Shown: in pieces, positions 1 through 39,013 of the stretch
Position numbering within the stretch: position 1 is the stretch's first letter
Layout: every line of letters begins with the position of its first letter
Source of the DNA: Streblomastix strix
Taxonomy: Eukaryota
Assembly (NCBI GenBank): GCA_008636045.1
Contig: SNRW01000008.1
Location: forward strand, 1 to 49,791
DNA: 49,791 nucleotides
Direction: 5' to 3'
Notes under the pieces: model-generated
Seen by the model: the letters and a program-made list of their open reading frames with translations, nothing else
Databases searched by the model: none
Told to the model about the DNA's origin: nothing
Translations under genes and position numbers: made by a program

Positions 1-2
1 AA

Positions 3-3000
3 AACAGGAGATTAGAAGAAGAAAGGAAAAGATAAGAAGATGAAACTAAGAAATAAGAAGAAGAGAAGAAGAGATAATTAGAAGAAATGAGAAGATTGGA
101 ACTGGAACGAATAAAGAAGGAAATCGAACTGAAGATGCTGGAGGATGAACGTGCTAGGAAAGAGAACGAAAGATAGAAGCTTGAGTAGCTGAGGAAGAAA
201 TAATAAGAAGATATGCGAAGATTGGAAATGGATAAAATGAAGAAAGAAGAAGAAATACGAAGAATTGAATAGGAAAGACTCCAGAAAGAGCTTGAAAGGA
301 AACAATAGGAAGAAAATAGAATGAAATATAAAACAGAAACTAAGAAATAAGAAGAAGAGAGAATCAAGAAAGAATATGAAATAAGGATGTTGGAAGAGGA
401 TCGTGTTCGAAAAGAAGATGAAAGACAGAAACTTGAATAAGAGAGATGTAAACAGGAAGCTGAGATGAGAAGATTAGACTTGGAAAAAGTCAAAAAAGAA
501 GAAGAAATTAGAAAATTAGAGGAAGAAAGAATTCTGAAAGAGAAAGAAGTTCAATAGCAAGAATCAGAAAAGAAAAATTATGATATTTAAATGAGAAGTT
601 ATCAAGAAAAGGTTAGAAAAGAGATAGAAATAAGGATAATTGAAGAATAAAGGATTCAAGAATAAGAAGAAAGGAAGAAGAGGGAATCGGAAAGAAAGAA
701 TTAAGAAGAAGACATGCGAAGATTGGAAACAGAGAAGATTAAGAAAGAATATTAAATAAAGATGCTAGAAGAAGAAAGAATCAGAAGGGAAAAAGAAGGG
801 AAGGAATAAGAATCGGATAAACTAAAGCAACAAGAAGAAATGAAAAGATTGGATCAAGAGAAGATTATGATTGAAGAAGAGATTAGAAGATTAGAAGAGG
901 ATCGTGTTCGTAAGGAAGAAGAAAGAAAGAAGCTTGAAGAAGATCAAAGGAAATTAGATTCAGATAAATAGAAATAAGAATAAGAAAGAATTAAGAAAGA
1001 GTTCCTAATCAAGATGCTTGAAGAAGAGCGAATTAGAAAAGAAGGAGATAAATAGAAGTAGGATGCAGATAAAAGGAAATATGAGGAAGAGAAAAGGAAA
1101 TTAGAATTAGAGAGGATGAAAAAAGAAGAAGAAATCAAAAGATTAGAGGAAGAAAGACTACAGAAGGAAGAAGAAAGGAAAAGACAAGAAGAATAAAGAA
1201 AGAAAATTGAAATTGAATTGAAAAGATAAGAGCAGAGGATTAAAATGGAGAAGGATATTAAGAAACTAGAAGAAGAACGTGTTCGTAAAGAATAAGAGAA
1301 AATAAAAGAAGAATAATTGAGAATTCAATAAGAAGATGAAGTAAAAAGATTAGAATAAGAAAGAAAGAAGAAAGAAGAAGAATTAAGAAGAATGGCTGAA
1401 GAAAAGATTAGAAAAGAAGCTGAAACAAAATAATAAGAATCAGATCGTAAATAGTATGAGAGAGAAACTAAGAAATAAGAAGAGGATCGGATAAAGATTG
1501 AGCTTGAAATATAGAAATTAGATGAATAACGTGTAAGAAAAGATCAAGAAATGAAACAACAAGAAAATGAAAGAAAGAAACAACTTGATGAAATGAAAAA
1601 ATTGGAACTTGAAAGGATAAAGAAAGATGAAGAAATTAGAATATTAGAACAAAGTCGTATTCAAAAAGAATTAGAGCTTAAGAGACAGGAATCAGATAGG
1701 AATAAATAGAAGACTGAAACAAAGAAATAAGAAGAAGAAAGGGTTAAAAAAGAGCTTGAATTAAAGAAATTGGATGAAGAGTTAGTTAAGAAAGGTGAAG
1801 AAAGGAAGAAGTAGGAATAATAAAAGAAGAAATAAGAGCTAGAATTGAGGAGGTTGGAAACAGAAAGAGTATAAAAAGAGACTGAAATTAAAATATTAGA
1901 AGAAAAACGTATAATTAAAGAGAGAGAAAGAAAGATACAAGAAACAGCTCGTAAGAGATATGAAGATGAAACGAAGTAATAATAAGAAGAAAGAATGAGA
2001 AAAGAGCTTGAAATACAACAATTGGAAGAAGATCGCATTCGAAAAGAAGAAGGAAGGAAGTAATAAGAATAAGAAAGAAAAAGAAGAGAAGATGAATTGA
2101 GGAAGATTGAAACTGAGAAGTTTTATAAAGAGACTGAAATTAAAAGGTTGGAACAAGAACGTATGCGAAGGTAAGAAGAGAGCAGAAAATAAGACTCGGA
2201 TAGACGGAAATATAATAATGAGACAAAGAAATAAGAAGAAGAAAGAATTAAGAAAGAAATGGAGTTGAAGTAATTAGAAGATGAACACGCTAGAAAGGAG
2301 GCAGAAAGGAAATAATTTGAATTAAATAAATTATAGTATCAGGAAGAAATGAAAAGGCTTGAAGCTGAAAGGAAAAGAATTGAAGACGAAATTAAAAAGA
2401 TGGAATTAGATAGAATTCGAAGAGAATAAGAAAATAGAGTTCAAGATTCAGATCGCAGAAAATATGAAGAAGAAACAAAGAGGTTAGAAAAAGAAAAGAT
2501 GAAAAAAGATGTTGAAATTAAAATGCTGGAAGAAGATCGTAAACAAAAAGAAAGAGAAAAGAGGAACAAAGAAAGAATGAGTAATAGTTCAGATGGAATG
2601 TAGATTATGTAAGATGGATCTTTTGGGGAAAACAATGAAAGGAAGTTTAATATGGAAATGTAATAAAATTCGGATAGTGAGGATGGTTCATATATGCAGT
2701 AAACGAGATAAACGAGATTACAATTTAGTCAAGAGAAAGTAACAAAGATTTCATCATGGAATGATGTTGCAATCAAAAGTGCCAGATCAAGAAGGGATGA
2801 GTTATCGTCACAAAGAGGAAATAAACCGGAAGATTAAGAGTATCAAAGGGGTGTAATAAAAGTAGATATCAAATCTATTCATAATTTGCCAGAAGATTGT
2901 GTGAAGAAGAACAAAGATATCTTTGTTCAAGTGTAACTTGGAGCATAGGAGAAGAATACCAGAACTTTGAAAGCTGGATCAAATATTGATGTCAATGAAG

Positions 3001-8126: not shown

Positions 8127-9250
8127 CCGATCAAACCTAAACTATTTTTGAAAAATAAAACTTTTGTGCATGCTGCCTTTTATCTGACAAATAATTAGCG
8201 TAAAAAACGATGTAAAATTCTAACCGAGAAAATTCAATGGTTGATTTTAGCATAAAAATTAGCCCACCGATCACCTCTCAACTATTTTTGAAAAATAAAA
8301 TAGTGACAGAAATTGCCTTTTTTATTTTTTATTTTTTTTAACAAGTTAATAAATAACCTTCTCTGATAAATAAATAATTGATAAAGAATCAGCTGGAGAT
8401 AAGATGAACCGAATTAAATGTTAAAAATATTATTAAAATTATGAACCAATTATAAATTGCGCCAGATACTTAATTAATGAGGAATCATTAATTGTATGGG
8501 ATTCAAAGTTAGATAGAGAAGTTAACCCTTAACCAAAGAAAAGCAGAAGTGGTAGACTCACAGGTAGATAAATTAAGTTGAACAACATTAAAGAAAAACG
8601 TTGTGACCTATCTTTTTTTATACTGCAGCTAAATATTTTATACCTAACGATGGCATCAATTATAATAAAATATGCCATTTAGATAGTGATATCGGGAATG
8701 ATTCATTTGATAATTTATTATGAATAGATTAATTTGATTATAATAGATACAACACAATCAAGTACTATCAAATAAAAACTAAAGATGAGAAGAAAGATAA
8801 AAATTTAACTGATATATTTATGTATAAGAATAGATTATTTGACAATTATGAAGTAGATTAAGCATAAAATGCGTGGTTTAATAATCATGATAATGATCTA
8901 TATATGTAGCTAAAATTAATGATAATAGTAAAATCTACTTCTATATTAACGTATATAAAAATAATAAGGTTGAATTTAAAATGTACTTTGAAACATTAAT
9001 TAATGAATTAAAGAATTGAAATTATTATTTTTAATAAATATTCATTCCATCTAAGAAATTTAAGTTTTCATATAAAGAGAAATATATATGGGTTAAAATT
9101 AGATACTTAAATTGATGTAAATTAACCTACCGATCAACTTTCAAATAATTCTGAAAAATAAAACAGAGGTGCAATCAGCCTTTTCACTGACCGAGAATTT
9201 AACTAAAAAATAAATAGTGGTGCAAGCTGCCTTCTCTTTGACCTGAAATT
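8127..9250 (+). repeat. Dispersed ~55-60 bp direct repeats (CCGATCA...TGAAAAATAAAA...GCCTT)
   Basis: Copies at ~8127, ~8267, ~9130 and a partial copy at ~9205; each pair lies upstream of an ORF. Confidence 0.7.
8404..9019 (+). pseudogene. NUMOD4/HNH_3-like endonuclease remnant
   Basis: YEPIINCARYLINEESLIVWDSK, then after a frameshift AKYFIPND...KICHLDSDIGNDSFDNLL* resembling the HNH_3 FIPN..H.D....N...NL.W pattern. Confidence 0.6.
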
Positions 9251-9699: not shown

Positions 9700-10520
9700 A
9701 ATGGAATTGTTCATTGCGGATAAAGTTTATCTGTTAATTAATAAATTATTTATTAAATAAATTATTAATAATATTAATTATCAGTTTAATAAACACTTTA
9801 ATTTGAATGATTAATATAAAGGTAAATCTATTGAGTAATCGTATAAATTATACGTAGAAGAATATAATACTAAAAATATATAGAAGAAAAATAAAAATTG
9901 CTTGAGGTTAGCCGACTTCATTAATATTATCTTAATGAAAAAATTAAGAATTATAAATTGAAGCCACAAGTGACATATTAGCGTCCTTACTTTTCTCCTC
10001 AATTAGGATCATTGGAGATGGATATAGCTTTTTTAAAACAGTTATTTTTTTTATTTTATTATCAACGTTAATACAAAGTATCAAATTATATATCCTATTC
10101 GTATAAATGAAAAATAATCACTAATCCCGGACCTAGAGTAGCTAATATAATCTTAATATGTGACAATTATTAGATCAGATTGCGAAGCAGCATTAGGAAG
10201 TAAATAAATTAGGGCTCTATTAACTAAATATAATATATAATATTTTTAAAACAAATCCCTATTCACGAATAAAAATAGAGTGGTAGATAGTGTGATAAGA
10301 AATATGAGAAATAAATTAATAAATTATCAAGTAAATAATCAAATTCTATAATAAGTAACTGATGAGTTCAGTAATACAAAATACAGTGCTTTTAGCAATA
10401 AATATACACCTTTATAAGTAAATGAATCACGTGATTTAGAAGGTAGCTACATACGCCAATAGTAATAAGAAGTAGAAGGTAAAATTAATTTATAAAGAAA
10501 AGATTAGTTAGTAAATATAA
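9700..10520 (+). pseudogene. RVE integrase remnant (Polinton type)
   Basis: RPYFSPQLGSLEMDI, INVNTKY, IRSDCE, RVVDSVIRNMR, SAFSNKYTP; collinear with the integrase at 26303-27506. Confidence 0.8.
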
Positions 10521-11039
10521 ATATGTATTAAATATAATAAAAAATTTAATTTTTTTTAATTAAAAATTTTTAATAAATTTAATTTAAAAAATTTTTTATT
10601 TAAATTTTTATTATTTAAATTGTTTTTTAAAAAAAACTTTAAGTTATTTCATTATTTATTATTGTGATTTAAATTAATAAATAATATAAATCTTTAAAAA
10701 ATTTTTGTTAGAAATATTCAGTTACGGAACTCGTACAATCGTTAAAGCTAAAAAGCATGCTACCATCGGAACTGATCCAATGTACCAACTAAAATTAAGA
10801 GTAGACCTAAGAAATATTATACTATTGAAGAAGCTAAATAGCGAGCTAATGAATGGAGATTGTACTTCAAATATCGTTATAGAGACAAGGTTAAGTAATT
10901 TAAGAAAGATGTAACAACGAAATAATTAGATATATCCAAAATACTTAATAAATATATATTTTAATAAGAGGACATTAATAATATTATGATTATACTCGAA
11001 AATTATATAAATAGGCTTTAATATTTATCTTAAAATTGA

Positions 11040-13359: not shown

Positions 13360-13933
13360 AGAAAGGTGTTCTGGTATCGTTTATGGCAGGATTTATTAAT
13401 GGAAGATTTGAGTGGTTTAGTAGTGAAAAAGGTGAGAAAGTTACAAGAAAAAATTAATTAATATGTGGAAATATGGTGTTAAAATTTGTGTTTATGAATT
13501 GGCAATTAGGTGAGCCGTCAGGCTGTGAGCCTCGAGGGGGTATGAGTCGTTAGGAAATGATTTTTGAAATGTGACCCCCTGGTGTATAAGTTATGCATTC
13601 TAAAAATCAAAAAGGGATAAGATTGATAAATTTAAAAGTTTGGGATTTTGCATTGATTTGGAGTTAATTTGAGTTATTGTAGGTAATTTATTGACAAATT
13701 TACATATAACTCCGCCAGAACTCCCTTCTCTCTAAAATACGGTGTTTATATTGGAAATTTGAGATAGAAGTTAGTCTTGTGATAGATTTGATGAGATTTA
13801 CACCTCGAGACTTGAGGTGATTGACAGTGGGTAAAATATAATAAAATACCGTATAAGCCGCCACGCCTCGAGCCTCAAGGGGTCTTGAGTCGGTCTAAAA
13901 AAAATATTTTGTAATCTGTCCCCTTTTTCATTT
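13360..13933 (+). repeat. Left terminal inverted repeat
   Basis: Reverse complement of 38441-39013, e.g. GGCAGGATTTATTAATGGAAGATTTGAGTGG; outer half nearly identical, inner half more diverged. Confidence 0.95.
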
Positions 13934-15850: not shown

Positions 15851-17131
15851 TTTCTTTATAAGTATTTCATGCTTAGCAATGGATGTTATTATCGACTAAT
15901 TGGTATAATTCGATTATATTCGCCCACAACTAATAACTATTTAACTTCAATTGAGTCATTTATAACAATTTCATAAGCACAGTCTGTAAAAATAAGGCAT
16001 TTACACGGAAAATAGTATAATATTAATGATAATTCTTAAATTTAAAAGAATCTTAAGTAACCAATGAATGTTTAATAAATAACCATGAAATCCATCATAA
16101 ACGGCATAAATCTATTCCCTATTAGAATTATATCTTCATTATCTGGTTTAAATTCTGAAGATTAGGTGTAAATATACACTGTTGTCAATCGATAATAGTA
16201 TTAAGGGTAATATATTCCTGATGTTCTTTCATAATTTTTTATTTATTGAATAATTATTTCTGAAAAATATAAGATTATGGTATCCATAACGCATCATCTT
16301 GTCACTAAATTTATATGAGTAATTAACTTGTGCTTTAGATTTTTATGATAGATTATAAGAAAACGGTGCTAATCCTACTGAAAATAATATATCATCTGTT
16401 AAATTCATTGATCTTGAAACTTGGTATTTAAAACTAAATATGATAACTAGAGTTAAGAATGTGATACTTCTGTTTTATGCACTTTCGTGGGTAATTTCTA
16501 ATAGTATCTTCAGATGTTGATCATATCTATCTCAAACTAATTGTAAAGAATTATATTTTAAAAAATTAGCGGATAAGGTTTCTCAAATGTATGTTATAAG
16601 TAAAATCTTATTGATGCACCTGTTTTATTGGGTTAGAATATGTTATCTTAATAATGTATGATATGTTAAAGTAAATGTGTAATATTTACTATATTTGATA
16701 ATTATGGCAGAAAAATATCATTGCAAATCATGGATATGTACAACAACTTGTTACTGGAAATTTAGACTTAATGATGTCTTTTTCGACGGCGAAAGTGGGG
16801 TCAGACTGAATTAATTTATTTTTAGACGGCTCGATGCGCCGATCCATCGGCTTAAATTCGCAGGAAGTAAACCTTGAGACACGCGGCTTAGAGGGTCACA
16901 TTTGAAGTAATTTTAGACCGACTCAGCATATCTCGAGGCTTGCGGCTTAATATTAATAAAATTGGATCATTATTAATTATCAGATCCACTAATGATATTC
17001 ATTATTTTTCCATTTCCTTTCCTAATTTGCAAAAATAAATTAACATACGTTTTACGTATACTGAATCGTTTCACGATTTGGCGACGTGATTAGCAGTCTC
17101 TCATCCACATCTTACTGCACAAGCATTAAAC

Positions 17132-18918
17132 TCATCCTAAGTCTACCATCGTTCCACCTACTTCACCTATGATTTCGAAGTTTAAAATTTATGGATAAGG
17201 AGCATCATCGAATGTAAATCAAATGATTGCATCACAGAGATAATGCATTTACGGCGTTATCTATGCATTAGTTGGTTAAGGATAAGGTCTTGTTGCGATA
17301 AATTATATAAGATTATTTTATTCATCTTAGATCCCAGCGACTGCATCAAGTATCAATGAATTATCTATGATACCTGGAGTTAAATACTCTTATAAAGTGA
17401 CTTGAATATTAGTTCTTGCTCTCAATTTAGATGAGTTACATCCGCATATGAATGAATCATCAGTTGCCATCTTCTATGCCAGCATAAATTTATGAGGATA
17501 ATATATTTTTACTGCTTTATTTTTAACGTATAGCGTAGTATTATAGAGTATATTCTCTTTATCTTCCAAACCAGCACCTATATAACTATAATAATTTCCA
17601 TTGGAGTCATATATAGTTTGAATTTGGAAATTCAATGAATGATTCAAATCAGATGATGCTGAAACAAGATCTTACTCAACAAAACACTCGAACATCTATC
17701 CAGTAACCATGGGATTTAACGATACATATTCTTATGGGATAAGATATCGTTGATCAATTTCCAAATTGAACTTCTAAAATTACACTGGTAACATCCATAT
17801 TTGGATATTATTTCAATGCAAATGTAATAAACAGCGCTTTTACGTTAGAATATGACTTTATACTTTGCATAGAACCAACATTTTCAGAAAATCCACGAAA
17901 TTGGAAGTTAATTGATTGTGTACGTATAATTTACGTAGGAGAATTCAATATTTTTTGATCTCTTATCATATCAATGATTGATTCTTCATTTTACATGTTG
18001 AAACACAAATTATTAATATCTAACTTAGTAAATCTTGAATCCTTAATTTAACTAATTGAGTTTGATGGCCTTCTTTCATCCGGAGCTTTTCCTTACATAT
18101 TGTCAAGTCTTATCGAAAATGCATTATATTTAGTTTCATCTGTACGTAGCAAGAAAACTATATCAGGTTTTTCTGGTGTAATCATTTAATAAACTAGATG
18201 ACTATTGATTATAGTATCAGACTTTTTTTAACTATACAACCTTCAGATCGAATAAGAAATCTTAGGTCCATAATTATAAAAATAATGATGCATAATTACG
18301 TGTTAACACTGGAAATGAATTGAAAATAGGATTTAACTAATTTAAATCAAGTACTCCAGCAATTGTTATTAGATATGGAATTAAATAATTAAAGCTTCCA
18401 GCAGCAAAAGCTTCAACTGATATATCTATGAAAACTCCACAATGTCTTCTTCCTCTAACTACTGTTTCTAATGGTGATACACTCACGGAATTATTAGTAT
18501 TTAAATCAGATAATGAATTTGCAGCTATCACAGCTTATTCTCTTGCATAATTTGATATCTCCCATAGTTTTGTATTATCTTTACTGATTGCTATTTATTA
18601 GAATGGGCCACAAGCAGTTGAGAATCCAAGACAGAACTTAATATGTTCATCATCACCAATTGGCATTTAATTTGCTTCAGCTACAATTTTCATTGTACGA
18701 ACCCAATCTGCTTACATATTAGCTAATTCATTGAAATTTACTCTAACTCTAGCTGTTGCTATTGCAGCAATAAGCGTAACTAATCCTGGCACTAAATTTG
18801 GTTATAATGCCAATCACTCAAGGAATTGTTCTTTGCCAGTTAACTTAACATAATTATACCATTGAACATGTTGCATTACCTCTTACATCTAATGGAGCTC
18901 TTGTAAATCTCTATCCAT
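17132..18918 (-). pseudogene. Putative double jelly-roll major capsid protein
   Basis: ~595 codons; FCLGFSTACGPFQQIAI...NYAREQA, GVLDLNQLNPIFNSFPVLT...LFLQL, C-terminal TPQMHYLCDAII.FTFD resemble protist Polinton MCPs; internal TGA and frameshift. Confidence 0.7.
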
Positions 18919-19182
18919 CACTTATAAGTTAATTAATAAATTAATCAAAGAATTTTTATCTACTTATACTAAAACTTTATAGATGAATCGGTGCTTATCT
19001 TTGCACTTCTTACATTGCAGAATACGTTGAAACATATTCAGAATATTATACTTTTGCTAACTTTTATATGTAATCGTTCGCTGAGAAACTCATATTGCGT
19101 ACGGTTTTTTTATAATTTAAAATAATGTATACGTTTTATTATTCAAACAATCGCTCAAACAAGAAAACATACTATAATTATC

Positions 19183-19389
19183 ATGGGATTCTTTTCTGGA
19201 TTGAAGAATTTTGACTCAAAATTATTAGGCTGAATTAAGAAAGTTGCAGGTTGGGTTGCTCCCACGCTTCATAAAGTGATGGCGACTCTTAGCGGACCAG
19301 TAAACATGTTACATCCAGATGCTGCGTAGATAATAGGTACGATTGGTAATATTGCAGGCGGAATAGAAAGGCATTTGAATAAACGTTGA
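19183..19389 (+). pseudogene. Small amphipathic peptide, adenovirus pVI-like N-terminus
   Basis: MGFFSGLKNFDSKLLG*IKKVAGWVAPTLHKVMATLSGPVNMLHPDAAQIIGTIGNIAGGIERHLNKR*; one internal TGA at 19231. Confidence 0.55.
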
Positions 19390-20148
19390 TAAAAACAATT
19401 GAATTACTTATTATTTTCTTATTCTGAATATAATGATGGAGGAATTGTACTAATTTGAATAATCTTTTGGCAAAACTCATAATGCTTCAGATTATGATGA
19501 GTTTAAAATATTTGAAGCACTTGTTGACAATAAGGAATTAGATGATGAGCAAAAATAGTTTTATGAATAAAAAATAAGAAAAAAATAATTGATTTGGCAT
19601 AATTACAAAGGAAACTTAATAAGTCATTGGTTATCTTCACTATTTAGATACGTTATGCTAAGTTAATTGATAATATGCACAAAACAGCTGATTATCATTA
19701 TCCATGACAAATCAATTATATAACTATTTCTCTTCATCACTTGCTTCAGATATAACATATTTCATTATTTATTATGGCTATTGATTCATATCCATCTTTT
19801 TCTTGATTTAATTGTATTAACTTGCGTAAAATTTATTATTTTCTCTATATATTTTATTCTTATAATCTTCATCTACGAATTTTTTCATTTGCTGCAATTT
19901 GCATCATAGATTTGTGAATTATTAATTCTTATTAATCCTTTAAACAATACATGCTATTATTCTGATTAATCTTTGATCAACTGAGTTTGCAGTGTTTCTA
20001 TTGTTGTTTTAATTAGATCTTTATTTTCATAATTTGATTTGAAGAGCTCATTAAAGAGCTAATTTAATGGTTTTGACATGTTTTATTACCCAATTTTCAG
20101 TTGAAACAAACAAAGTTTGCAAAACTAAATTCAACAATGAAGTTGTTT

Positions 20149-21500
20149 TCATAGTATTCTACCATTGAAAGATAATGTGTTTCTATCAGCACTGATTTGT
20201 AATCCTCTAGTATTATCACCAGCTTAAGATGCCATTGCGAATATTAAACCATAAGGGTCATTTATAGCAGTACTTGATGGTGTAAATATTGTCCATTATC
20301 CTTCAATAACGCCAGAGTTAGATGTTCTACTACATCCTAACTAAATCGATGAATTAGCTGTATTTGGAGCTGATCTGGATATTCTCAAACCATCATCATA
20401 ACTAGTTGCTGTAGGATTTAATTAAATATTACCTGAAGTAACACATGCAAATGTTTTTTTACCTGAAATTGATTAATCATTAACAACATCAACGAATCCA
20501 TTACCATTAAATGTTAATGTGTTTTCATCTGCGGATATCTATAAGCCTTTATTAGCCTAAAATTTTTAACCTGATTTTGATATGATAAAGCATAGTGGAT
20601 TTATATTAGTATCCACTGATGTTCCCATAATCCATTAGTTATCAATAAACCCACTATTTGAATACGGATCACAACCAAATTAAATATTACTCCATTAGTT
20701 GTTTATTGATCTACTTATTTGTCTCCCTTCGTTATATATACCATCAACTGTTGGATTTACTTATATTAATTTTTTGATTTTTTTTTCAGTAATCGTTTAA
20801 TCAGTAGCTATATCAACTACACCATTAATATCTTTAGTATCACCATTTGCACTTAATATTTCCGTAGCTAATCCTCCTGTTTTAATGAATTTAAGTGCAA
20901 TTAAGTTCCCATCGTAAGTTAATTATTAAGGATGAATATGATCATGTCTTGAATAATATGCAGAAGTACCATTATTTCGAATTCCATTAACTGCAGGTAC
21001 AATTTACGCTTTAGTTTAAACATTAATAGGATGAAAATGATCAATTCTAGCATATGCAGCAACAGTACCATATGATCCATCTACTGAGTCACTAACTGGA
21101 ATAGTATCTGCAGTATAAATTGGATATTAATGATCAGATCTAGCACAAGTGTTATCTGAGCCGATATTACCAACCGAAGTATCTTTACTTGGCAATACAA
21201 TAGATACTTATAGTGGATGCTTATGATCTCCTCTAGAATATTCATTTGAAATTCCTGCAACTCCAGTTCCACTATCAGCTAATGGTGTAGCATCACTTGC
21301 AGGAGTGACTTAATCAGGAACTGTATCTCCACTGTTGTACTAATTCTAATCATACATCCATACAGTTCCACTTTCAGCAGAGAATGCAAAATCACCATTG
21401 GCAGAGTTTTCTAATTATTTTATATCAGTGTTCAATAAATTGTATCCTTTAAAATGTATTTATCTATTAAGTTCTTCAATAGTTACATTAATTTATTATT
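20149..21500 (-). pseudogene. Phage tail-fibre-like protein
   Basis: Four R.DH.[HY]P repeats, KFIKTGGLATEILSANGDTK, and two tandem repeats ending GLQISAD.NTL.FNG; start uncertain (may extend to ~21890). Confidence 0.7.
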
Positions 21501-21915
21501 ATAATCCACAATATCTTATGTTGCAGTCCCAAATGTTTAATATATTACATTCACTTTTTATTTTAATGGAGAAATTTTTGCAATGAAACCATTATTTAAT
21601 AAATTTAATATTTTCAATGTCATTACATCATTTGTTTTCAGTTTCATTGCAAAATTTTTAGAATTATCTATTGGTATATATATTAATGAGTTTTTGTCAT
21701 CAATTGTCAAATAATATTCAGTTCCCGATAATTAACTACATGAACTTGATGATTAACTTTGATATTATAACAAATATTGGAAATTTGATTAAATTAATGA
21801 ACGAATCACTAATATCTATAGTTAACTCAATGTTTTTGCCAACGTCATATTTGAATATATAAAAATAAATATAATCATACCAATTATCATTGATTCTTTA
21901 AAACTTTTTATTTAC

Positions 21916-22946
21916 TCAACCACTTATTAAGCACTATGAATTCATACTTGTTAAAGTACCATATATTAACATAAATTCATCAAAAACTAGATTCTAAATA
22001 GAATTTACTTCATAAGGTTGCTTTAAATCACTTTCGCTAAGATCAACACCAAAACTTATAACATGTGATAATATACTTGCAATTTTGAACAAGTAACTTG
22101 GCCATTAAGCAACAAAAAACACAGTATTTTTGCAATGTCTACAGTCAGATACTAAATGAGTTAGTGTCTTAACTAATTCTGATAAAAATCTTTAAATATC
22201 AGCATTGCTTCCAATATCATCAAAAATTAGCGGCGAATTCAGCAGAGAATTATGAAATAGTATGGGTATTTTTATAATTTTTAACTCCGTATCTCATTCA
22301 TCTTAAGAAATCTGAATTTTTCTTTCGAAATACACATTATGAATGTTTGCTGGGACAGTAAACCTCATAATCATTGTCGGAACGTTGTATTTCGTTATCT
22401 TATCAAAATACTCTTATTCAAATATCTCAGCAATTCCTCTAGCATAATCCTTTAGTTTTTCCATTTATTTTTCGATAGACGCGGATGCAAGACGTGTTGG
22501 ATTCTCTTTGATTGGTTTATTTTGAATAATTCTTTCTTTCATTCTTTATATATATAATCTGATTTGTAAGATATGTTTAGTTCACGTAATTTCCAATAAG
22601 TATAGACTTCTTTTACCGAATACTTGATCTCATTAAATTACGGTTCGAAAGATATTACTTCCTCATATGTTATGTTGGTGAATATGATATTCTTCGAGTT
22701 ACGATTCAATGCCATAGTCCTATCAGCACTAAAGTTAGAGAAATATAAAATGAAAGGATTAATTTTTTATTTATATATTACAATTAGTTTGCTTATTTGT
22801 GTTGTTTTCCCTGAGCCAACTGCGCCAATAATATAATGATTCACAATGATTAAGAATAATGAATTTCTGGTTAATGATTTAGTTTTGAATTCATCTAATA
22901 TAGAATTATCGTCGAATGTAACTGATTATATCTCTTCTAATGTCAT
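21916..22946 (-). pseudogene. A32/FtsK-type genome packaging ATPase
   Basis: Walker A IIGAVGSGKTT (~22800-22830); Walker B LIFDDIG (~22210-22230); frameshifted. Confidence 0.85.
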
Positions 22947-23449
22947 GCAGGTTATCTGTTGCAGCAAGTTGCTTTGGTTAGTTGCCAAATAAATCTGTTG
23001 ATATTAATAATTAATTCTATATTTTATGGTGTTAACTTCATTGTTTCCGTAATTTCATTATCTATTCCTGAATAACTTACATAAATATTCTCATTAATAA
23101 AGTAATTATGGAGTTATTTTGATGCGATTCTAGTGACATTAAATTTAATCAACTAAATATTTCAATTCGTTTATCGTAGAAGAAACGAAAATAAAATTGA
23201 ACATTAGAAAATTCATAAGAAAAATAAGCTTATTTTCATTGAAGTAAGTATTAAAATGAATAAATAGAAGATTTCATTAAGGAAGCGATTGAAAAATAAG
23301 ATGAGGAACTCGCTAAGATGTCGAGATATATATTGCATTTGAAGTTGTTGAATCTTAAAACTTATACGAAGTCTGACAATAATGGAAATCATGATAATGG
23401 TAATTAAAATTGAAGTTGAGTAAAAAATTCAATTTATTTATTTGGAATT

Positions 23450-24340
23450 TCATACAACATTTTTGATAAAATAACTTACATTAATTACCACATTTAACGA
23501 AGATGGAATTGATATGAGTGAATTAGAATTATTAATAATTTATCCGTATTAATTGATTAAATAATCCAGATATTAACTAATATTAGCTGATGAAACTGCT
23601 AAATATTACATATATAGTGTACCAATAAATTAAAGAATAAAATTATCATCAACGGTTCCCATTATGAAAGGAATGCTAGTCGAACCACCTTGTGATACCC
23701 AACGAGGATATTCATTAATATGAACTATTTCGCTGCTATGCAAAACTAACGAACCTTAACTTAAACCACTTACATTATCAGTAACTTGAAATTATCTTCT
23801 TTTTGCATTTGATAGAAATATTACTTAACCATTGAATTTTATTTAACTACAATTTTTATCTAAATATTCCTCTATTTATATTTTAATAATCGTCGTCTTT
23901 ATATATTTAAAATGATGCATCACGTAGCCATGTTCCAGTACCTTCAAAATAAGAAGTAATTACCTAATTATATTCTAAAGTTGATACTCCACCAATTGGC
24001 TTACAAACATTAGCACCTAAATAAATACACTTGGTTCTTAAACAAACCCTCTAGTTATTCTTAGCCCTGCTTATTTTGTAACAATTAATAAAGAAGTTGG
24101 CTATAACGTAAAATCTGAAAAAGCATATGATCTCTCTTTTATTATGAAATCGTCTATATCTGATTTATCTCCATTAACGAGTAATATTTATTTTTAAGTT
24201 TCATCAGTTTTTATAAATGAATTTGTAACTATAGGTTAAGTAAATGATTTGGTCTCTGTAATAGTTTAAGCTGTATCTTGTGTTACTAAACGTGATAAAT
24301 CAACTTATATTTTCTTAAAAAAATAACTAAAATAAGTAAA
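23450..24340 (-). pseudogene. Second short fibre-like structural protein
   Basis: LVTQDTAQTITETKSF...FIKTDETQKQILLVNGD fibre-like motif; homologous to 43450-44680 (+). Confidence 0.5.
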
Positions 24341-26302: not shown

Positions 26303-27506
26303 TCACAATTTAAAATAATCTTTATATTTAGTATCTAATAGACATATATCTTTTGCAACTAATTTGCAATATTATTCAAGTAATTCTACTATTTTTAAAT
26401 CAGACTATGATTTAAGTAATTTCACCATTACATTTCCATTAGATTATTTAATAAATTCTGCTAATTCATTGAAATTTCTTCTTTACATAACGAAGGAATC
26501 ACCAGTTTTTGTATAATCAAGATGTATCAAAAGAATAATTCCAGGTTAAAACGATAAAAGTCCTTTGTTTTACTATTATATCTTAATATCAAACAGTTTA
26601 TTCTTTTATTATCTTTTGTATTAACCTTCAATATCATCATTATCATTAGCTTATTTTGGGTAATATTTGTTGTCATATGCAGAATGAGGAATCTAATTGT
26701 ACATTTATACCATCTGTTACATCAAATCATTATCTGCAAACTTCTCAGAATCATTGCCAAATCCATTGCGAATAGTCATGAACACTGAATCAACAACTCT
26801 GCTTCGATTAGTGAATTTTGAGTCGGTAAAGAATGAAGTAAAGTTATTCTCTTAACTGAATGTTTTCAATATATTTCCGCTGAATCCTTTCTCGTCATCG
26901 CCTCTAATGTTAGTGAAATGATTATTCTTAACTAATTTTTACAACGCATTCATGATTTAACCTGTAGATTTATCTCTCAAAGGGAAACAACGAGATATTT
27001 TGTATTAATATTAATGCAAAAAAAATATATTTAATTTACACGAACAATATGTTTATCCATTAAGGAAACTAAATCAAATTACCATGATCCAAATATTGGA
27101 GAGAAATAAGGACGATTCAACTTAAATAATTGTTTAATATAATAATCAGGTGGAATTTCATGTATTTTTTGTGAATGTTTTCCATGAAATTTCTTAAAAT
27201 GTTCAATTTTTGATTTGAAAGGGAATTTTAGAGGTTTGCTTGGTTATTCTAATTCTTGGTTTTAACTGATTACCGCGGAAAATTACGAAGTATTTGCACA
27301 TTTGATTAATCATGCTTCAAATCATATCACATATATAATTTCTCAAGCTATTTTTCATTAAATTTTCCGTAACTATGCGTACTGGTTGCTGCTTCGCAGA
27401 GATTTTATTTATTCAGATTCTTAATAAATTCTTAGAACTTCATTTAATTCATGTTACGATAAGCTGTATATTAAATCCATTAATTTGTGTCTTCATAATG
27501 CGCCAT
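26303..27506 (-). pseudogene. RVE (DDE) integrase
   Basis: RPYFSPIFGSWQFDLV, CININTKYL, IRGDDEKGF, RVVDSVFMTIR, MYNQIPHSAY; frameshifted. Confidence 0.9.
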
Positions 27507-27639: not shown

Positions 27640-30418
27640 TTTTTAATTATATAATGATCAGTATTAACACCATAAACATATGGTGAACAAGCCTGATTTC
27701 TAAGAACTATTGTTTTTGTATTGATACCGCTGATTCCAAATCTTTATTATATAACTTATGAAAATATTTCTTACTTATGAATTAATGAAGTATTATTGAC
27801 TTTTGTTATTATATTTTTGTTAGTTTTATCTTAGAATTATTTCTTATTTATTTATGAATTTTATTCTTATATCATTCCTATCAATTTCATAATAACTTTT
27901 TAATTCGTATTTCTCACTTCGTGATTAAGCCAAATAATTCTTGTTATTCTCCATATAATAACACTTTGGAGCTAATATTAAGCAAGTTGTAGCTTCTAAT
28001 TCAATATTCCACCGTATAATATTCTTAGTATTAGAATAATCATTGCTTGCTGGAAAGAAATGAGGATGTAACTCTTTCCATAATTTCATATCTTTAATTG
28101 GCCAACTCTCATGAGCTATAGCCAAGCATAAACTATCAGTATCACCTTAAATAACATGAATATAATCCATATCTAAGCAAATAATAAGAAAATTATAATA
28201 GGCATTGAGATAGAAGTACTTTGAGTTATCCATTGTAAAGTAAGCAACTTATAATGGTGTTGAGTATTAACACCTCTTCTTTTCTAATTCAATTATGAAG
28301 TAATTCTCAGAAATCTACTTGTCAGTAAGAAAAGTATTGGCCGTATGATGTTTCCATACGTTTTTCTTATTGCATAATCTGAAATCTTATTATTTCTCAG
28401 TGTTAATTGAATCATAAAAAAAAGTAATCACTTCAAGTTTATTTTTCAGTTTTTCACCTTTATTACCTTCAATATGAGGTTTACAACGAAGATTTATATT
28501 AGTTTTATCAAATTCATTGAATTAACAGTGTTTATTAAAGACAATGAGCTATTTAATATCATCAATCACTAACTGGCAACGATCAATAAGAAACCATAGA
28601 TAATAATTATTGAATTATATATATTCATCATGAGTTAATAATAGCATCATTAATTTTGTTACTTCCATATCATGTTACATGTTATTTTTAATCATATTTT
28701 CATATATATGTTCACCAATGGTCTCTTTATTAGAAGTTATCTTAAGATTACGCTAAATAATAGGAAAATTTATGAATTCATTGATGCATTCATCTGGTAT
28801 ATATGCTTTGATTTTTGCAATGAAAAGATGTACGTGCTTGTTTATGATGTTTTCATCAGAAGAGAATCGAAATTTATTGAATATGAATTAGTTGACTTAC
28901 TCTTAATCGTGAATGATATATTTAACTCCTCCTTGCATATACATACTACGCATTGTATAAAGAATTAATGGATGTTGCTCGTCACTCATGCAAGAATCAT
29001 TGAAACTGTTGAAATCTAAACAAATTATATTGTCAATGATATACAGAAATTAATAAGAAACAATGCTGGAATCTCGCTTATTAAATTTATGTATTTTTGT
29101 TTTACCAGCGATGTTTTCTCGGTGAATAACGAATGAATAGCTGCGAATCATATCATTATGAAGCAATTCATAAATTTATTAATCGGTAATTGTCATTGGT
29201 AAGCTATTTAATTCGCAAAATTTCCTTAATTAAATCATTAGTCTTGCAGTTTCTTTATCTTTGTTCGACGCATACTAATTACAATACAAACAATAAGGAA
29301 TAACATTTGTTTTTGAATGTGATTTTTCAATATCTATTCTATCAAGAGTTAGCTTAATATCATAAGTATATCTTGCCTAACACATGTGACAACGTTAAGT
29401 TGAGAAAATATTATGAAAATAATTGTAATCGTCTTTCGTTATATTGTGATTTATTCTTCGTTTTTTACATTTATCTTACTCATTGTAGGAATTAACTTTA
29501 GATTTTCAATAATCTAATGATAAAACAAAGAAATTCGCATTACCAATAGGATAATAACAGGAGGAAATATTAAAATTCTTATAGCAAAAGGCATATTTCT
29601 TTAAACAAGATAACTTTGCAAGAGAAATATTTTACAGTAAATCTATATGAAAATCTATGTAATCTTTAATTCTATTTTCGATTGCAGATAATAATAGTTG
29701 TGATTCTCTTTTTAAATCATTGATCGAGTCAATCTTCCCAATATCTCTAAGAAAATCATCGAATTCCATATTTGTACCAACATAATTCTTAGCATCATTG
29801 AATTCTAAATGAACGGAATTATCAGCTGATTTAACAATGATATGTATTGGGCAACCTCTTAGTCCAGGGCGGTCAATGATTTCATGCATAATTGATTTAA
29901 AATTCATAAATATTAGCGTTGTTGCAGATTTCATTCAGTCAAATCCAATAACCGGAACATCATAATATTGTGGAACCTCATCAGCATATTTATTATCATT
30001 ACGAATTTATTTTGCTTCAATGAATATCTGCTCAAACTATTTCTCAACATAGTTATCTTAGGACTGATCATAAAAAATTTATTTGATATAGTTCTTTGTT
30101 TTAATTGTTGATGCAACTATTGCAGGAGTAGGAATAGGATGATTTCTACCGGGAACTTTCTATATTTCAGTTTGAAACCTGAATGTTAAGTAGTATTATG
30201 TTGGTTTATACTCTGCTTTTTGATTGTGAGATAAGAGATATCTATATGTTTTATTAGATGTAACATGTGGAACAAATGGTTTCGGAAACTTCTTTAATGT
30301 AACATATTTAACAATTTTAATATTGTTTTACTTGCATTCTATCTTGTGTGTATCCATTTTTCGTTTAACATAATGACTTATATCTTACGAGAATATAGCA
30401 TGATTCTTATATGTGGGA
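27640..30418 (-). pseudogene. Protein-primed family B DNA polymerase, exonuclease and polymerase part
   Basis: VPVIGF (Exo II), ICLDFNS (motif A), HVIQGDTDSL (motif C), LAPKCY; stops and frameshifts. Confidence 0.9.
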
Positions 30419-33400
30419 ACTACTTTAAGGAATTCAATTTTTAAATAAAAGTGGGTTAGTTTTATATATAATAATAGTACTATATTTAAAAATATAGATA
30501 ACTAATAAAAATTTAAATAAAACTTGCAAATATTCCATATTCATGGAGATTATTCAAAAATAAATTAATGCTTATTTGAAATTTTTTTTTCAATCAAGAT
30601 ATAACTAGACAAATTATCTAAAAAATAGAATTATTATTATTTTAATTAAATAAATGCAAACACTTTTAATACTCATTTTTGCATTATTATCAATAAATTA
30701 TTACAATTTAGCAAATATTAATGCTCTGTGTATTAAAAGTATTACCAACATTAAATTTAATAAATAAATAATATAAATTAAATATATTTAATTTAAATTA
30801 TTAATTAATTCATTTATGTTATATTAATCTTATTATTTTATTAAACATTTGTAAATATAATCATCACTTTAACAGTTAATTTATCAAAACTTTTAACAGT
30901 TCATAATTTAAGAATTATATTTATTTATTAAATAACTATTTAATGAGCAATAAAAGCTTCATAATTATTACTTAATTTGCGTTTGAATTTATTTTAATAA
31001 AAAGTCTTTTTTTTGTTATTTCTACACAATCATGTTTTAAAATTGTTACTAATTTATGATATAAATAAAAACTTATTCATTTTTTCATAAAATCTAAATA
31101 AATTAATATCATATAGAAAAAATAAAAAAATTGAAAAAAATAAATGTTAATCGTAACTTGATAATTATTTATTTATAAATTTGAAAAATAAAAAAAATAT
31201 AAATTGAATGATAGAAAAAGTAGAAAACATGTAAAATATTTAATATAAAATGAAATACTTCAGGTAAAACATAAATTTAATTTCTTTGAAATAGATATTT
31301 AAAGAAAATGTAATAATAATATCTCTAAGAATTTGTTATGAGATCTACTCTATTAATGAAGATTACCTTTCAATACTTCAAGCATAAATCCTGTCAATTC
31401 TTTGATATGTTACTTTTGGAACATGATTTCCATTGTTTCACTCGCCTCAATAAGACGTCCTTCAGGATTTTGAACAAGTATGAGAGCAAATTATTCAGCC
31501 CATTCTCCTTTAACTTGACAAAGACCTCGAAATATGTCTCCATATGGTGCACGATATCCTGTTTGTTTACAGTATGCAATCAGTTTACCTAATTCACAAA
31601 GTTCTGCATATGTTTATACTGCTTTCTCAAGTGCACCACAAGATAAATATGCAGATAATGCGAAGTTCAAGTCAATGTTTCGAAGGAAACTACCAAAATG
31701 GTTCTGATACAGTGATCTTCCCATCTCTTAACCATCTTTCTGCCATGTCTTTATGTCATTATGGTTCAAATGGTCTGAATTACTCCTACGATTCTTATTC
31801 ATTCATTCGAGTTAGTTCAAATAACACAGTAAGATATTACATTTATGGTGGTGCTTCTCCTCCAATTGGTAATGCAGTCTTGAATCTTAGGATCGTTTGA
31901 GGTGTTATTAATACTTCTACAGGTTACAATAGCTGCCATTTTAGCCGCTTCAACATAATTCTATGCTAAGAAATTAGCTTCAAATTACTAAATAAATAAG
32001 TTTTCACATCCACTCAGCTTTGGACGACCTGTTATTCTAACTGCAAGTGGAACATTCTACAAATTCTATGTGATGTATGATACAATACCACGTTCATCAA
32101 CTTCAATCTAAAGTACTTATTCTTGTACATTCACTCCAATCAATCAATCTTCTATATGTTCACTAACAGATGTGAATATAAGAGATGTTGATATTTTAGA
32201 CATAACTACAAGAGTAGCTGTTCCATTCTCAAATGCTGATAGAATACCCATAGCAGATATTAGCAATATAAGTCCATATCTTTCTGAATAATCAATTGCA
32301 ACAGAGAAATCATTTGGATCAGAATAAATGACATCAGCTGATGCACGCAGTGCCGTCACTCCGGCTGCAATTGGACTAACTTCATTCATAAATAACTTAC
32401 TTCCAGCTGCAATATAGAATGATACATATTATGTATTCTTCTTCTCTCCATTATTGATCTACATACTTCTAATTAATTTCCCAATTATTTGGCTCATTGG
32501 TGATGCAAATAAAGACATCATACTCGTTTCTTATCTACTCTCAAGTTACTGAAATTCAATCCTGCAAGTTATGAAAGATAAATAAAAAGAATTTGAAGAT
32601 TTAACTAAATTTTAAATTTTCATTCATATATATTTGATGATAACACAAGTATAAATGATTTTTCATCAATTCATTTCAAATATTCAATGTTTTCTGTTAT
32701 CATTTTGGATTTTAACCTAGCGAGGAGGTCAAGATCATATATTTGAAATAATTATTTGAATATTTAAAAGAAAATTAATAATAAATTGAGTTTAGTTAAT
32801 GAAATAAATATCAAAAAACCACTATAATAAAGCAGATATTTAATTTCGGGTGTTGGATGATAATTTAAGTGAGTCAAAGTTTTGAACGTAATATCGTATG
32901 CTTCAATAATTGTGTAATTCTAGTTTATAATTATTTAAAAACTATACTAATATGAGAATTAATGTGGACAATTAATAGAATTAAAAAATTTAACAAATAT
33001 TATCAGAAAAAATAAAAAAATAAAATAAAAAAATTAAAATTCTCTTTTTTAATCAATATATATTAATAATTATTTAAATTTATGTTTGAATAAAAAATTA
33101 AATAATGTAAAAAGATATTCAATATTAAATATTTTGTTTGCCTATCACATAAAATGAGTACTTTAATTTCTGTATAGTTTTAGCTCACGATATGATTATT
33201 TATGAAGTTATTTATATGTAAAATAAATATAAATCTCTATATTTAATTAAAATATTAATTTAAATACTGAAATTAATATTCGTTTATTGATCAATTTGCA
33301 AAATATTTCTTTTCTTAATATTCTATTTCATTAAAATATAAAGCTGTTCTAAAATAGTTACTTATAATTTTAGTATAATTATAAAAAAATTTTAAATGTA

Positions 33401-35090: not shown

Positions 35091-35388
35091 AATAGGCCAA
35101 TATCGTTAAGATTATACGCCGTGAGCCTCGAGGTCTGTCGAGTCGGTCTAAAAAATAATTTAGTATGAATTTTTAATTAATTTTAATTATTACGTTTTTT
35201 TATAAAAAAATTAATTATTGATAATTAAACTTTTTTTTTAAACAGTCATTTTAGTAAGTTGGCAAATGTCAGAATTAGGAAATGTCTCAAGTCGTCACGC
35301 CGCGAGCCTCGAGGTTTAACAAGTCGGTCCAAAAATAAATTCCAAATGCGATCATCTTCCGCCATCGACGGAATCTGTGGTTAAATTA

Positions 35389-38384
35389 ATGAAGTCTGCA
35401 ACAACGTTGTCTGCACATAATAGTTTGCATTTCACTCCAATCAAAGAAATTTATGAGTAAGATTCAGAAAATCAAAGAACACTAAAGTGGTTTAAAAAGA
35501 ACATATATGTATTACAATAGAAAAAACTTACCGTTGACTTTTTTAAACCATGTACAGCGTCAGACTAACTTATGATTGAAGTAAGTTGTAAATACTATAT
35601 TGCAGATAAATCCGTAAATGTGTATAGATATGAATGAGATCCAATAAAAAAGGTTTAGAAAGAGAAACAGATGAACTCAGACCTAGATAAATTCTATGAC
35701 ATATTTCTGTAATTTCAACAAACACCCGAATATAATGAAATATTATAAATAGAAACGGAATAAGAAGAAGAATGTTGATTACGTAAAGCATTATCTGATC
35801 TAAAATATTAGAATGAATAGATGAATATTGAGGCAGATCCTGAAAAGAAGGCTTAGATGTGGATAGACTTGTGTCTTATGCAGCATGATTTAGAAATTTA
35901 TCCAGTAGAATAGAAACATGTAATTTAGTATATAATGAAATAAGAAACTGTACTTAATAAATTAAAGAGATAATCAGAATAAGAAAATAAATAAACAATT
36001 GACGAAGGAGTTTTAATTGATAAAATCAACTTATATTACTATAATAAGATTGATTATGGAAAAACAGGAAAAACTATAACAGGATCTTGCATAAACATTG
36101 CAAAATGTCCTTGATTATCAGTGGTTGATATCGATATTAATAAATCATTAAGTAATGAATAAAGAAAAATAATCAGAGATGAAATCTTAGAAAAATTTAA
36201 TAAATCAAAGTTAAATGTAAGCTTAACTGAGACTGTGCATGGTGGATTACTTCTATATTGTAATATTGGATTTGAATTATTAGAGTAGAATTCAATAGTT
36301 GAGAAGATATATAATAATAAATATGATGTTGATATATTTGCAAGTGTTTAAGCATATTTCAATAAAGATTCTAAGGGAAGTTTGAGAAATATTGCATAGC
36401 CTGGAACTATAATTAAGGATAAAGTGAAAGATGCAATAACAGGAAAATGGATGAATGAAACAGACGAGATATTCACATATAAAGATCTAAATGACATATA
36501 TAACAAAAAAGATTTAAGTACTTTACAAGAAGTATTTGAGATATTAGATTTTGATATGGATGTGAAATACCATAAAAAACCTGAAATTAATGAAACTTTT
36601 AAATGGACTATTGATATGACAAAAGAATAAGCAGAAATATTAATAAATAGATTAAATAGCTTAGTTGTATATAATAATGCAAGGAGATCTGTAACTGAAT
36701 CAACTTTATTTGCGTTATTTTCATCAATAATTGGTTTAAAAGGTATTACACGAGTTGATGATGAGTATATTGATATGAGTTATGATAAAATGAAGTTAAT
36801 TCCTGGGTTAACAGAGAAAGCAAGATCAAACTTTAATAGCACTCGATATAAGTTTTGCGACAAATCATTTTTACTGCATTATTTATAGAAAATCGTTAAG
36901 TTTACAAATGAAAAATATTACTAGGAAGTATTCTTACAAACATTACGACACAAAACTGTATATTCTGAATAAGAAACAAAATAATAAACAAGTTGTGCAT
37001 AAAGTAGCGAAAGTTATTAATCAGAAAACGAAAATATAGATATAACTAAAATCATAATAAATAAGATAAATTTAACTGATTAATTTGAGTTATGCAGGTA
37101 TCTAAAATAAGATATTAAAGAATGATTATTAAAATATTGAAGATATCTTATCTGACATGACTGAAATCATGAATTATATGCACTTAGATAGTGATTCATT
37201 CCTTTTCAAACAATACAATAATATAGAAATGAAATATTCTATTGAATGTTAGAACAATGTTAATGTTTAGGATATTCTTCATAAGATTCTTGCCTAATTT
37301 AATAGAAAGAAGTCAAAACCACTATGGTAATTACAACTAACATGCAATTAAGTATTCCTTATTAAATAAATATAGTTTAAAAGTGATGATCTAAATGGGT
37401 TTTCTATGTTTAAAGTTAGAGATTCCAATAAGTTGATAAAATTAATATGGAATTAATATAGCCATATCAAAATCATATAATAGAAGTGATTTCATCAGAA
37501 AAAATTGCTGTTTAAGAATATATACTGAATTGGTTCTCTGCAATTATATAGCATCCAGAGATATAAACTCGGGTGTCAATAATATTAAGAGGAAGCTAAT
37601 GCTGCAGAAAGAATACTTTTACTGTTGTAATGTCTGAGTTATAATCTGGTTATTCATTGAGAAATATAACATCGTTAACTTCAGTAACAGAATAATTCAA
37701 TTAAATGCATGAAAATAAGGTATTTCTAGTGTTAAATGAGCTGAAAACATTCAGTAACGCAGTTGATCATGAAGCTGATAAACTTAAATCATTAATAACT
37801 GATCCAACACTAGAAATCCGTACAAAATTTCTTAATTCCAATATCACAAAGAACATATTAAATTTCATATTAGATTCCAATCATTTAGATCCTGTTCATT
37901 TAGATTAATCAGATAAACGTTATTTAGTATTTAACGTAATTCTAATTATAGAAAGAACTTTGAATACTTTAATAAGCTATTCTAGCATATAAATTAAGAA
38001 GATTTTTATGAAAATCTCTTAATATTCTTTATGAATCGTGATATATCCAAGTTTGACAAGAGAATTATACCATTAACCGAAGCGAAAAAGGAAATTATAG
38101 ATATTTCATTAGCGGACATTGATATATTCTGTATTAAATACTTTAAATAGTCAAAAGATGGTTAGTTATGCGAAGATGCAGTATAATGCTCATAAGAGTT
38201 TATGAAACCAGGAATATTCAGATTATAAATCCATAAGAACTTTGAAACAGTAATTAGGTCAAATCATGGTAAGAAACTTAGATATAGCGTTATTAAATAA
38301 GATAAATTGGAATAGTAATAAGAGTATTTCTATTAACAAGATCCAGAATATTCGTAAGTAATCAAAGTTAACGAAGATGATTGA
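35389..38384 (+). pseudogene. Prim-pol primase fused to SF3/DUF5906-like helicase
   Basis: LSVVDIDI, TETVHGGLLLY, DVDIF; EYILNWF...IILRGSQCCRKN (decayed Walker A), LVLNEL, KLKSLITD, SN...DKRYLVF. Confidence 0.85.
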
Positions 38385-38440: not shown

Positions 38441-39013
38441 AAATGAAAAAGGGGACAGATTACAAAATATTTTTTTTAGACCGACTCAAGACTCCTCGAG
38501 GCTCGAGGCGTGACGAATTACTCAGTATTTCATTCTATTTTACCAACTATCAATCACTTCAAGTTTCGAGGTGTAAATCTCATCAAATCTATCACAAGAC
38601 TAACTTCTATCTCAAATTTCCAATATAAACACTGCATTTTTGAGAGAAGAGAGTTCTGGCTGAGTTTCATATAAATTTGTCAATAAATTTCCAACAATAA
38701 CTCAAATTAACTCCAAATAAACACAAAATCTCAAACTTTTACATTCTTCAATCTTACCCTTTTTGATTTTTAGAATGTATAACTCGTATACCAGGGGGTC
38801 ACATTTCAAAAATCATTTCCTAACAACTCATACCCCCTCGAGGCTCACAGCCTGACGGCTCACCTAATTGCCAATTCATAACCACAAATTTTAACACCAT
38901 ATTTCCACATATTAATTAATATTTTCTTGTAACTTTCTCACCTTTTTCACTACTAAACCACTCAAATCTTCCATTAATAAATCCTGCCATAAGCGACGCC
39001 AGAATTACCTTCT
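38441..39013 (-). repeat. Right terminal inverted repeat
   Basis: Reverse complement of 13360-13933. Confidence 0.95.

Follow-up and report, generated by a model that had tools for sequence, protein, structure and literature searches.

A small gene beside a probable capsid gene in Streblomastix strix shares a helix motif with adenovirus protein VI and virophage capsid tails

Introduction

Does a 68-codon open reading frame (ORF) next to a probable capsid gene in the genome of Streblomastix strix encode a peptide with which a virus breaks the membrane of its host? A preliminary description of the window analysed here (the whole stretch of 49,791 nucleotides, contig SNRW01000008.1, positions 1 to 49,791) had proposed this from the likeness of the ORF to the lytic helix of adenovirus protein VI (pVI). 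Helix 34-54 is the lytic part of pVI: a 33-residue N-terminal propeptide is removed by the viral protease (10.1101/857581, in part; sources so marked were available as partial texts), and after the cut this helix, which lies in the hexon cavity and also affects capsid stability, lyses the endosome (10.1101/857581, PMC8310329, both in part). Small pVI-like and venom-like genes have been reported in Polinton-like viruses (PMC8502044, 10.1101/341131, both in part), and pores or lipases have been proposed as the means by which non-enveloped Polinton-like viruses and virophages cross the host membrane (PMC12220804, in part). Streblomastix strix carries endogenous viruses that use genetic code 6 and have capsid genes of the Metamonada MCP group; the available text of that study describes them by these capsid genes and not by a small gene (PMC10120064, in part).

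Results

A conserved small gene, decayed in the window

The ORF starts at the ATG at 19183 and runs on the forward strand for 68 codons to a closing TGA, exactly as first described, with a TGA in frame at codon 17 and a TAG at codon 49 (19327-19329) that specifies Gln under code 6, as TAA also does. Because the window gives no ORF longer than 153 aa under the standard code and long ORFs under code 6, the TAG is read as Gln and the TGA at codon 17 is the sole break (Table 1). The DNA of the window is AT-rich overall, and the GC content over the ORF is 0.42-0.45 versus 0.22-0.31 in the 100-base windows on both sides.

Table 1. Features of the window, with strand (a dot where none is assigned)
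Feature	Position	Strand	Remarks
Left terminal inverted repeat	13369..13933	.	565 bases, 92.6% complementary to right arm
Probable major capsid protein gene	17135..19093	-	Intact relatives ~650 aa; broken by one stop and three frame changes
AT-rich spacer, 89 bases, between two divergent start codons	19094..19182	.	Probable shared promoter
Small 68-codon gene, two-helix amphipathic basic protein	19183..19389	+	Stop-interrupted copy, rare substitutions
Motif shared with adenovirus pVI and virophage capsid tails, residues 3-13	19189..19221	+	
In-frame TGA, codon 17 (break)	19231..19233	+	Gly in 77/92 relatives
His-Pro hinge between two helices, residues 44-45	19312..19317	+	>90% conserved in relatives
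Small decayed ORF 3' of peptide gene	19460..19667	+	Also present there in other copies; joined with the peptide in 3 database gene models
Repeat-rich, putatively fibre-like gene, same module	20152..21719	-	PHROGs 'tail needle' E 0.003 (weak) for relative P0203
P-loop ATPase fragment, probable packaging ATPase	22539..23054	-	Weak Pfam P-loop E 0.01-0.05 on Walker A
Presumed integrase-like fragment	26303..27073	-	Motif resemblance
Presumed family B polymerase-like ORF, GDTDS motif and HNH-like stretch	27658..29505	-	HNH E 0.011
D5-like primase-helicase fragment beside right repeat	37390-38384	+	Pfam DUF5906 E 2e-15, PHROGs primase E 3e-13
Right terminal inverted repeat	38441..39004	.	Pairs with left arm

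A first search returned 28 candidates, and all 28 are relatives of the ORF (63-85% identity, E 6e-30 to 1e-18, all labelled Streblomastix strix), so that the ORF is not due to chance. A wider profile search found 213 relatives; among the matches listed (120), 117 are labelled Streblomastix strix and three are JGI-sourced proteins (P0261, P0302 and P0306), which are members of the family. We pooled 187 protein ids from the searches, 97 of which start with Met and have 66-70 aa; 92 of these align over their full length in 70 columns and are stand-alone proteins 44-91% identical to P0005. These copies were analysed as database proteins, at the protein level. The labels of the relatives, the use of code 6 and the code-6 endogenous viruses described in this organism (PMC10120064, in part) point to an oxymonad host. 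Conservation spans all 68 residues and thus goes beyond the first helix. The preliminary description had staked its reading on conservation of the ORF in related elements, for which these 92 full-length relatives now stand, and had predicted Gly at the interrupting TGA, the residue that 77/92 relatives have.

Could the frame be no gene at all, kept open by recent copying of the element? The window copy does contain a stop and nearly all relatives share one source organism, but a length held at 66-70 aa down to 44% identity and the GC step at the ORF leave this reading with next to no credibility.

A full HMMER search against 1.84 billion representatives returned 72 matches. Five of these are long repeat proteins, which the family profile no longer retained, and no virophage tail and no pVI came up to the threshold of the search. 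The family has no significant match in Pfam, PDB or PHROGs, and no relatives of it were found in protein-guided scans of IMG/VR and JGI metagenomes or in a start-of-gene pattern scan. Internal di-glycines were considered as cleavage sites and rejected as too variable (Ile14-x-Gly-Gly in 50/92 members, Ile/Leu57 in 17/92).

Besides the stop, eight positions of the window copy have residues found in <10% of the 92 relatives, including Asp at residue 11, inside the motif, where 85/92 relatives have Gly. These rare residues together with the stop indicate decay: the window copy of the small gene is dead and gives no evidence of a present virion stage.

Among the same-sense database gene models, 16/18 join the peptide upstream of a fibre-like protein (P0161, P0164, P0170, P0171, P0175, P0176, P0179, P0180, P0183, P0184, P0192, P0203, P0208, P0251, P0268 and P0303), five of them sharing the junction D[RK]L-KR. 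The join is likely an intron drawn by the gene caller, though a real spliced helix-fibre fusion is conceivable. These models show that in some subfamilies the fibre-like gene lies 3' of the peptide and has the same orientation, which is not so in the window.

The neighbour is probably a capsid gene, read divergently

The preliminary description placed the ORF next to the capsid gene. The two do adjoin, separated by 89 bases, on opposite strands and head-to-head; the identity of the neighbour comes from database names and a published study. The window region matches proteins of 650 aa along their length, in four pieces. We found 175 relatives of it, some of which bear the UniRef name 'Major capsid protein', and together with the capsid genes described in this organism (PMC10120064, in part) this makes the neighbour a probable capsid gene. 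A model of one relative, of low confidence (pLDDT 42), did not confirm the assignment: it retrieved Faustovirus and ASFV capsids at Foldseek ranks 1-8, with E 0.1-0.8; a viral library was uninformative, and VIA-align on the same low-confidence model gave no Z of at least 5, the mavirus capsid standing at rank 40 (Z 3.1, rmsd 4.8, 157 aligned). Profile comparison of the capsid relatives with virophage capsids yielded no match (P 0.078).

Linkage is seen in other copies as well. Comparing 120 of the 213 peptide members with 120 of the 175 capsid relatives, we found that for 14 of the 120 members listed the adjoining locus tag, on an equally long contig, belongs to one of the capsid relatives listed, versus an expected 0.5. 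Capsid-region text is contained in 15/182 gene models and is antisense in 13 of the 15, in agreement with the head-to-head layout, which predicts antisense capsid text.

The helix is amphipathic and basic, and a myristoyl signal is doubtful

AlphaFold2 places helices at residues 3-42 and 44-66 of one relative (P0001), with modest confidence (mean pLDDT 66). The amphipathic periodicity noted earlier in the window copy is confirmed, its best 18-residue moment (0.62) being matched by 23/5000 shuffles. Over residues 2-19 of the family, the mean hydrophobic moment is 0.54 and the charge +2.4, compared with 0.49 and +2.0 for 40 pVI and 0.60 and +1.5 for 24 virophage tails, with the caveat that a moment by itself cannot tell lipid-binding from protein-binding helices. 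The family mean moment peaks at 100 degrees, and the net charge of the 68-residue protein is about +5.

Picornavirus VP4 and polyomavirus VP2 are myristoylated entry peptides, and the Gly2 of the ORF had raised the possibility that the small protein is one of this kind, which would be compatible with the entry-helix reading given below. Gly2 is indeed present in the window copy and in 83/92 relatives, and S or T at position 6 is usual for myristoylation and not absolute, Gln at position 3 aiding sites that have no S/T6 (PMC4736023). However, position 6 of the family is Gly or Lys, with S, T, A or C in 1/92 members, and position 3 is Phe in 88/92, not Gln. Moreover, Gly2 (conservation 0.90) is less conserved than F3, N9, K13, I14 and L15, and the position that matches it in virophage tails is Asp or Asn. 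The suggestion fares poorly against these counts, and we regard a myristoylated peptide as improbable.

A short motif is shared with adenovirus pVI

Scanning IMG/VR with a pattern for the pVI motif quoted in the preliminary description gave 16 loci, 13 pVI and three related phage tape-measure-like proteins; a second scan of IMG/VR gave 45, of which 44 are pVI and one is a further tape-measure-like protein. The resulting pVI sample consists of mastadenovirus-like loci and was found through patterns that include the motif. In profile-profile comparison, the family matches 40 distinct pVI over 15 columns with a probability of 90.6 and P 1.3e-6, pVI Leu40 aligning with Phe3 of the family. The motif reads WSG[IL]KNFGS in pVI and FSGLKNFGS in family relatives, moment and charge are similar, and the pVI gene, too, adjoins the major capsid gene. 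We infer that such a match is notable when set against the virion proteins of related viruses, a few dozen in number, and would be marginal against a whole library.

The likeness ends with the motif. When it is removed, the comparison with pVI falls to P 0.14-0.16 and 23/100 block shuffles reach the score. A by-eye full-length alignment to pVI 38-105, which put the remainder of the peptide at rank one among 200 offsets, shifted by one residue from the register of the motif (11/5000 column shuffles), failed the profile and block-shuffle tests and was rejected. With the family profile no single pVI sequence exceeds 10.1 bits, and three related tape-measure proteins score above every one of them (10.8-11.5 bits; the fourth 8.0), these proteins having themselves been picked by the motif and owing their label to a reading of their repeats. 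The reservation made at the outset, that the match is short and could be convergent, was well placed, the motif being present in tape-measure proteins as well.

Membership of the pVI family was rejected. The family has 66-70 aa against about 250 for pVI; its gene is divergent from the capsid gene, whereas that of pVI immediately precedes hexon and shares its strand; it has no propeptide, the 92 members starting with Met two residues before the motif; and it does not have the C-terminal protease cofactor of pVI. No PPxY is found in the 92 members (0/92), and none of 29 members matches Pfam MCPVI (PF02993) at E up to 10, while the control pVI L008 matches at E 6e-99. The proposed likeness to the lytic helix thus stands for the motif, which is specific in the pairwise profile test (P about 1e-6), and for the basic amphipathic helix, and falls for the family as a whole: the small gene is not a pVI, and likely works like one.

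The tape-measure-like phage proteins (L010, L012, L014 and L061) have W[ST]GIKNF motifs in amphipathic repeats and offer a natural control for convergence.

Virophage capsid tails match better

A blind scan of IMG/VR with a pattern made from the family only gave four loci, three virophage capsid C-terminal tails and one unrelated phage protein. A looser pattern gave six, a phage enzyme and five virophage tails (three on the same contigs as before and two further). The phage protein in each of these two scans carries the motif by chance. One of the capsids (L065) is a relative of Sputnik V20 (E 5e-79), the solved mature chain of which stops at the start of the motif, and the motif site aligns with the MGG-SF cut site of mavirus. 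For mavirus, cleavage of the capsid protein has been shown and an amphipathic, possibly endosome-rupturing helix was predicted in the first tail fragment; the available text gives the tail a scaffolding and DNA-binding role and states that tail fragments were not detected in virions (PMC6048507, in part).

For a non-circular set we picked 29 virophage capsids by their jelly-roll motifs, 24 of which have a complete end; among the 24 are three seeds found through the motif and one duplicate, and every one is related to the seeds. The residues before [DN][FW] are Gly-Gly in 19 of the 24, Gly-x-Gly in four and Ala-Gly in one. An amphipathic helix opens the tail in 24/24 (moment 0.49-0.67), and SGL[KRT]xFG is present in 17. 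Against the 20 capsids left after removal of seeds and duplicate, the family matches with a probability of 96.1 and P 2.8e-9, over 53 of 605 columns. The same 20 capsids match pVI with a probability of 86.4 and P 4.7e-6, NGG and the motif being aligned. The profile comparisons were repeated with alignments made by a tool. These comparisons place the family closer to virophage capsid tails than to pVI, as far as sequence profiles can tell. Of the profile comparison called for in the preliminary description, the pVI part gave 15 columns; virophage tails, which it did not mention, match better.

Likeness beyond the motif is borderline. With the motif removed, the family still lands in the virophage tail, weakly (P 0.017-0.098); a global alignment pairs the His-Pro hinges of family and tails, with a score reached by 1/100 column and 6/100 block shuffles, and His-Pro is present in 13/20 virophage tail fragments. 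The best single virophage score is 21.4 bits (P 1.4e-8), which is not significant at the scale of a billion-protein search. The strong cross-family signal amounts to 13-15 residues.

The counterpart of the family is MCPC1, the first C-terminal fragment of virophage capsids of the mavirus and Sputnik type, which likewise opens with [DN]F.SGLK.FG.K on an amphipathic helix, measures 40-60 residues in 20 tails and has a second helix after His-Pro in 13/20. The layouts differ: the virophage tail is part of the capsid protein and is freed by the viral protease after a di-glycine, whereas the family is encoded by a gene of its own, on the strand opposite to the capsid gene, and its capsid relatives end without such a tail.

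Capsid tails (L062, L064, L065, L067-L088, L092, L093 and L099) and pVI (L017-L060) have in common NGG followed by an SG[LI]K.FG helix. On the side of the oxymonad elements, most full-length capsid relatives (P0029-P0148) end in a terminal Gly, without tail; this is what one would expect had a tail been split off in the past, but the small gene sits at the other end of the capsid gene and on the other strand.

A candidate entry helix and its alternatives

The locus holds a gene with a family of its own, linked to the probable capsid gene and encoding an amphipathic helix whose motif is common to pVI (after NGG) and to the virophage tail (after GG). By analogy with these proteins we think it fairly probable that the intact protein lay inside the capsid and that its N-terminal helix, basic and amphipathic, would be released at entry and would rupture the vacuole or endosome membrane. 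The capsid protein and the 68-residue protein would be co-expressed from the shared 89-base spacer, and the latter would be packed beneath the capsid shell; uncoating would expose the helix, which would insert into the host vacuole or endosome membrane and lead to lysis. Note that the free gene starts with Met-Gly directly on the helix, so that no maturation cut would be needed to free the helix end.

The same protein might instead be a capsid cement or scaffold, its helix packing inside the capsid protein or on the genome and aiding assembly without membrane lysis. The role given to the virophage tail, with its fragments undetected in virions (PMC6048507, in part), would suit this, as would the presence of the pVI helix in the hexon cavity and its effect on stability (10.1101/857581, PMC8310329, both in part) and the conservation of all 68 residues, at a net charge of about +5, rather than of the first helix alone. 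However, the stretch best conserved across families is the part that is lytic in pVI (10.1101/857581, in part), and an assembly role and lysis are not mutually exclusive; we consider a purely structural role unlikely, although the most serious of the alternatives.

Small, cationic amphipathic helices rich in Gly are in common use, and this counts for a third reading, in which the protein is no part of the virion and acts as a membrane binder in the infected cell (egress, remodelling or host-killing), having acquired the motif by convergence. That the motif can arise independently is evident from the tape-measure proteins, and venom-like membrane-active genes have been described in adintoviruses (PMC8502044, in part). 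Against it are the constant place beside the capsid gene and the outcome of the scans, two of three of which put the motif mostly on virophage tails, a tiny share of the collection: 1417 Lavidaviridae are counted in IMG/VR v3 (PMC9952930), and the collection scanned here has 2.9 million contigs, the versions being different. A role confined to the infected cell is accordingly given only a small chance.

Returning to the entry helix, a single ancestral membrane-penetration helix, common to adenoviruses, virophages and Polinton-like viruses, may have moved among three layouts, namely behind a cleaved propeptide (pVI), behind a cleaved di-glycine at the capsid end (virophage) and as a free 68-residue gene (oxymonad elements). 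We hold this common ancestry to be a tentative idea, with an even chance or somewhat less. If true, it would give an origin for adenovirus pVI and a named entry device for virophages and Polintons.

Small predicted membrane-active genes of virion modules that can be set beside the family by their description are the 'VI'-labelled genes of protist MELD viruses, adintovirus Cupiennin, PLA2X and GasderminX, and adomavirus LO6; the available texts name neither oxymonad elements nor virophage tails (PMC8502044, 10.1101/341131, both in part). We did not find the three-way link between pVI, virophage tails and a free gene, or the 68-residue family, in the main texts of the openly accessible literature searched. 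In adenovirus the motif labels a helix whose lytic action is proven; in virophages it labels the end of the capsid tail that is released, and in an endogenous virus of a protist it labels a gene of its own. Other elements can be searched for entry genes by means of this motif, and the question of entry becomes testable with three synthetic peptides.

The preliminary description went further and took the ORF to imply a real extracellular virion stage. In the window this does not hold, as the small gene and its capsid neighbour are both broken; the keeping of the gene across several element subfamilies nevertheless argues that the elements spread as particles at some time.

The host element and its surroundings

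Long terminal inverted repeats, as expected of a Polinton-like virus, bound 25.6 kb of broken ORFs, and a Polinton-like endogenous virus is the best explanation of the element. A double jelly-roll major capsid protein, also expected of such a virus, is suggested for the neighbour by its UniRef names and by PMC10120064 (in part), next to the low-confidence model described above. For the protein-primed polymerase B, integrase and packaging ATPase, the likeness in these broken ORFs is at the level of motifs. We take one fragment to be integrase-like from its motif and one ORF to be family B polymerase-like from its GDTDS motif (Table 1); neither the integrase-like fragment nor the polymerase identity obtained a library match. 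Virophage criteria include a virophage-type capsid protein and a cysteine protease (PMC9952930); a protease profile built from four sequences, a weak test, found nothing in the decayed window.

Clathrin heavy-chain fragments lie within the repeat-bounded region (31263-32143, minus strand; Pfam Clathrin-link E 4e-8) and are either host DNA that the element has captured or an indication that more than one element lies between the two repeats. Short copies of the terminal-repeat motif occur inside the element at 35116-35165, 35289-35338, 16911-16946 and 13520-13564, possibly as a bound site or as remains of nested copies. An inverted pair of 450 bases, 75% alike, has one arm inside the element (23433-23878) and the other outside (44251-44698). 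Pieces of mobile elements are found outside the repeats on the plus strand (8374-8915 and 9974-10828), with matches to HNH-labelled gene models and a second ORF that, from its motif, is presumably integrase-like. Positions 1-3000 of the window hold a long purine-rich repeat with a 21-base period, likely a host gene for a charged coiled coil.
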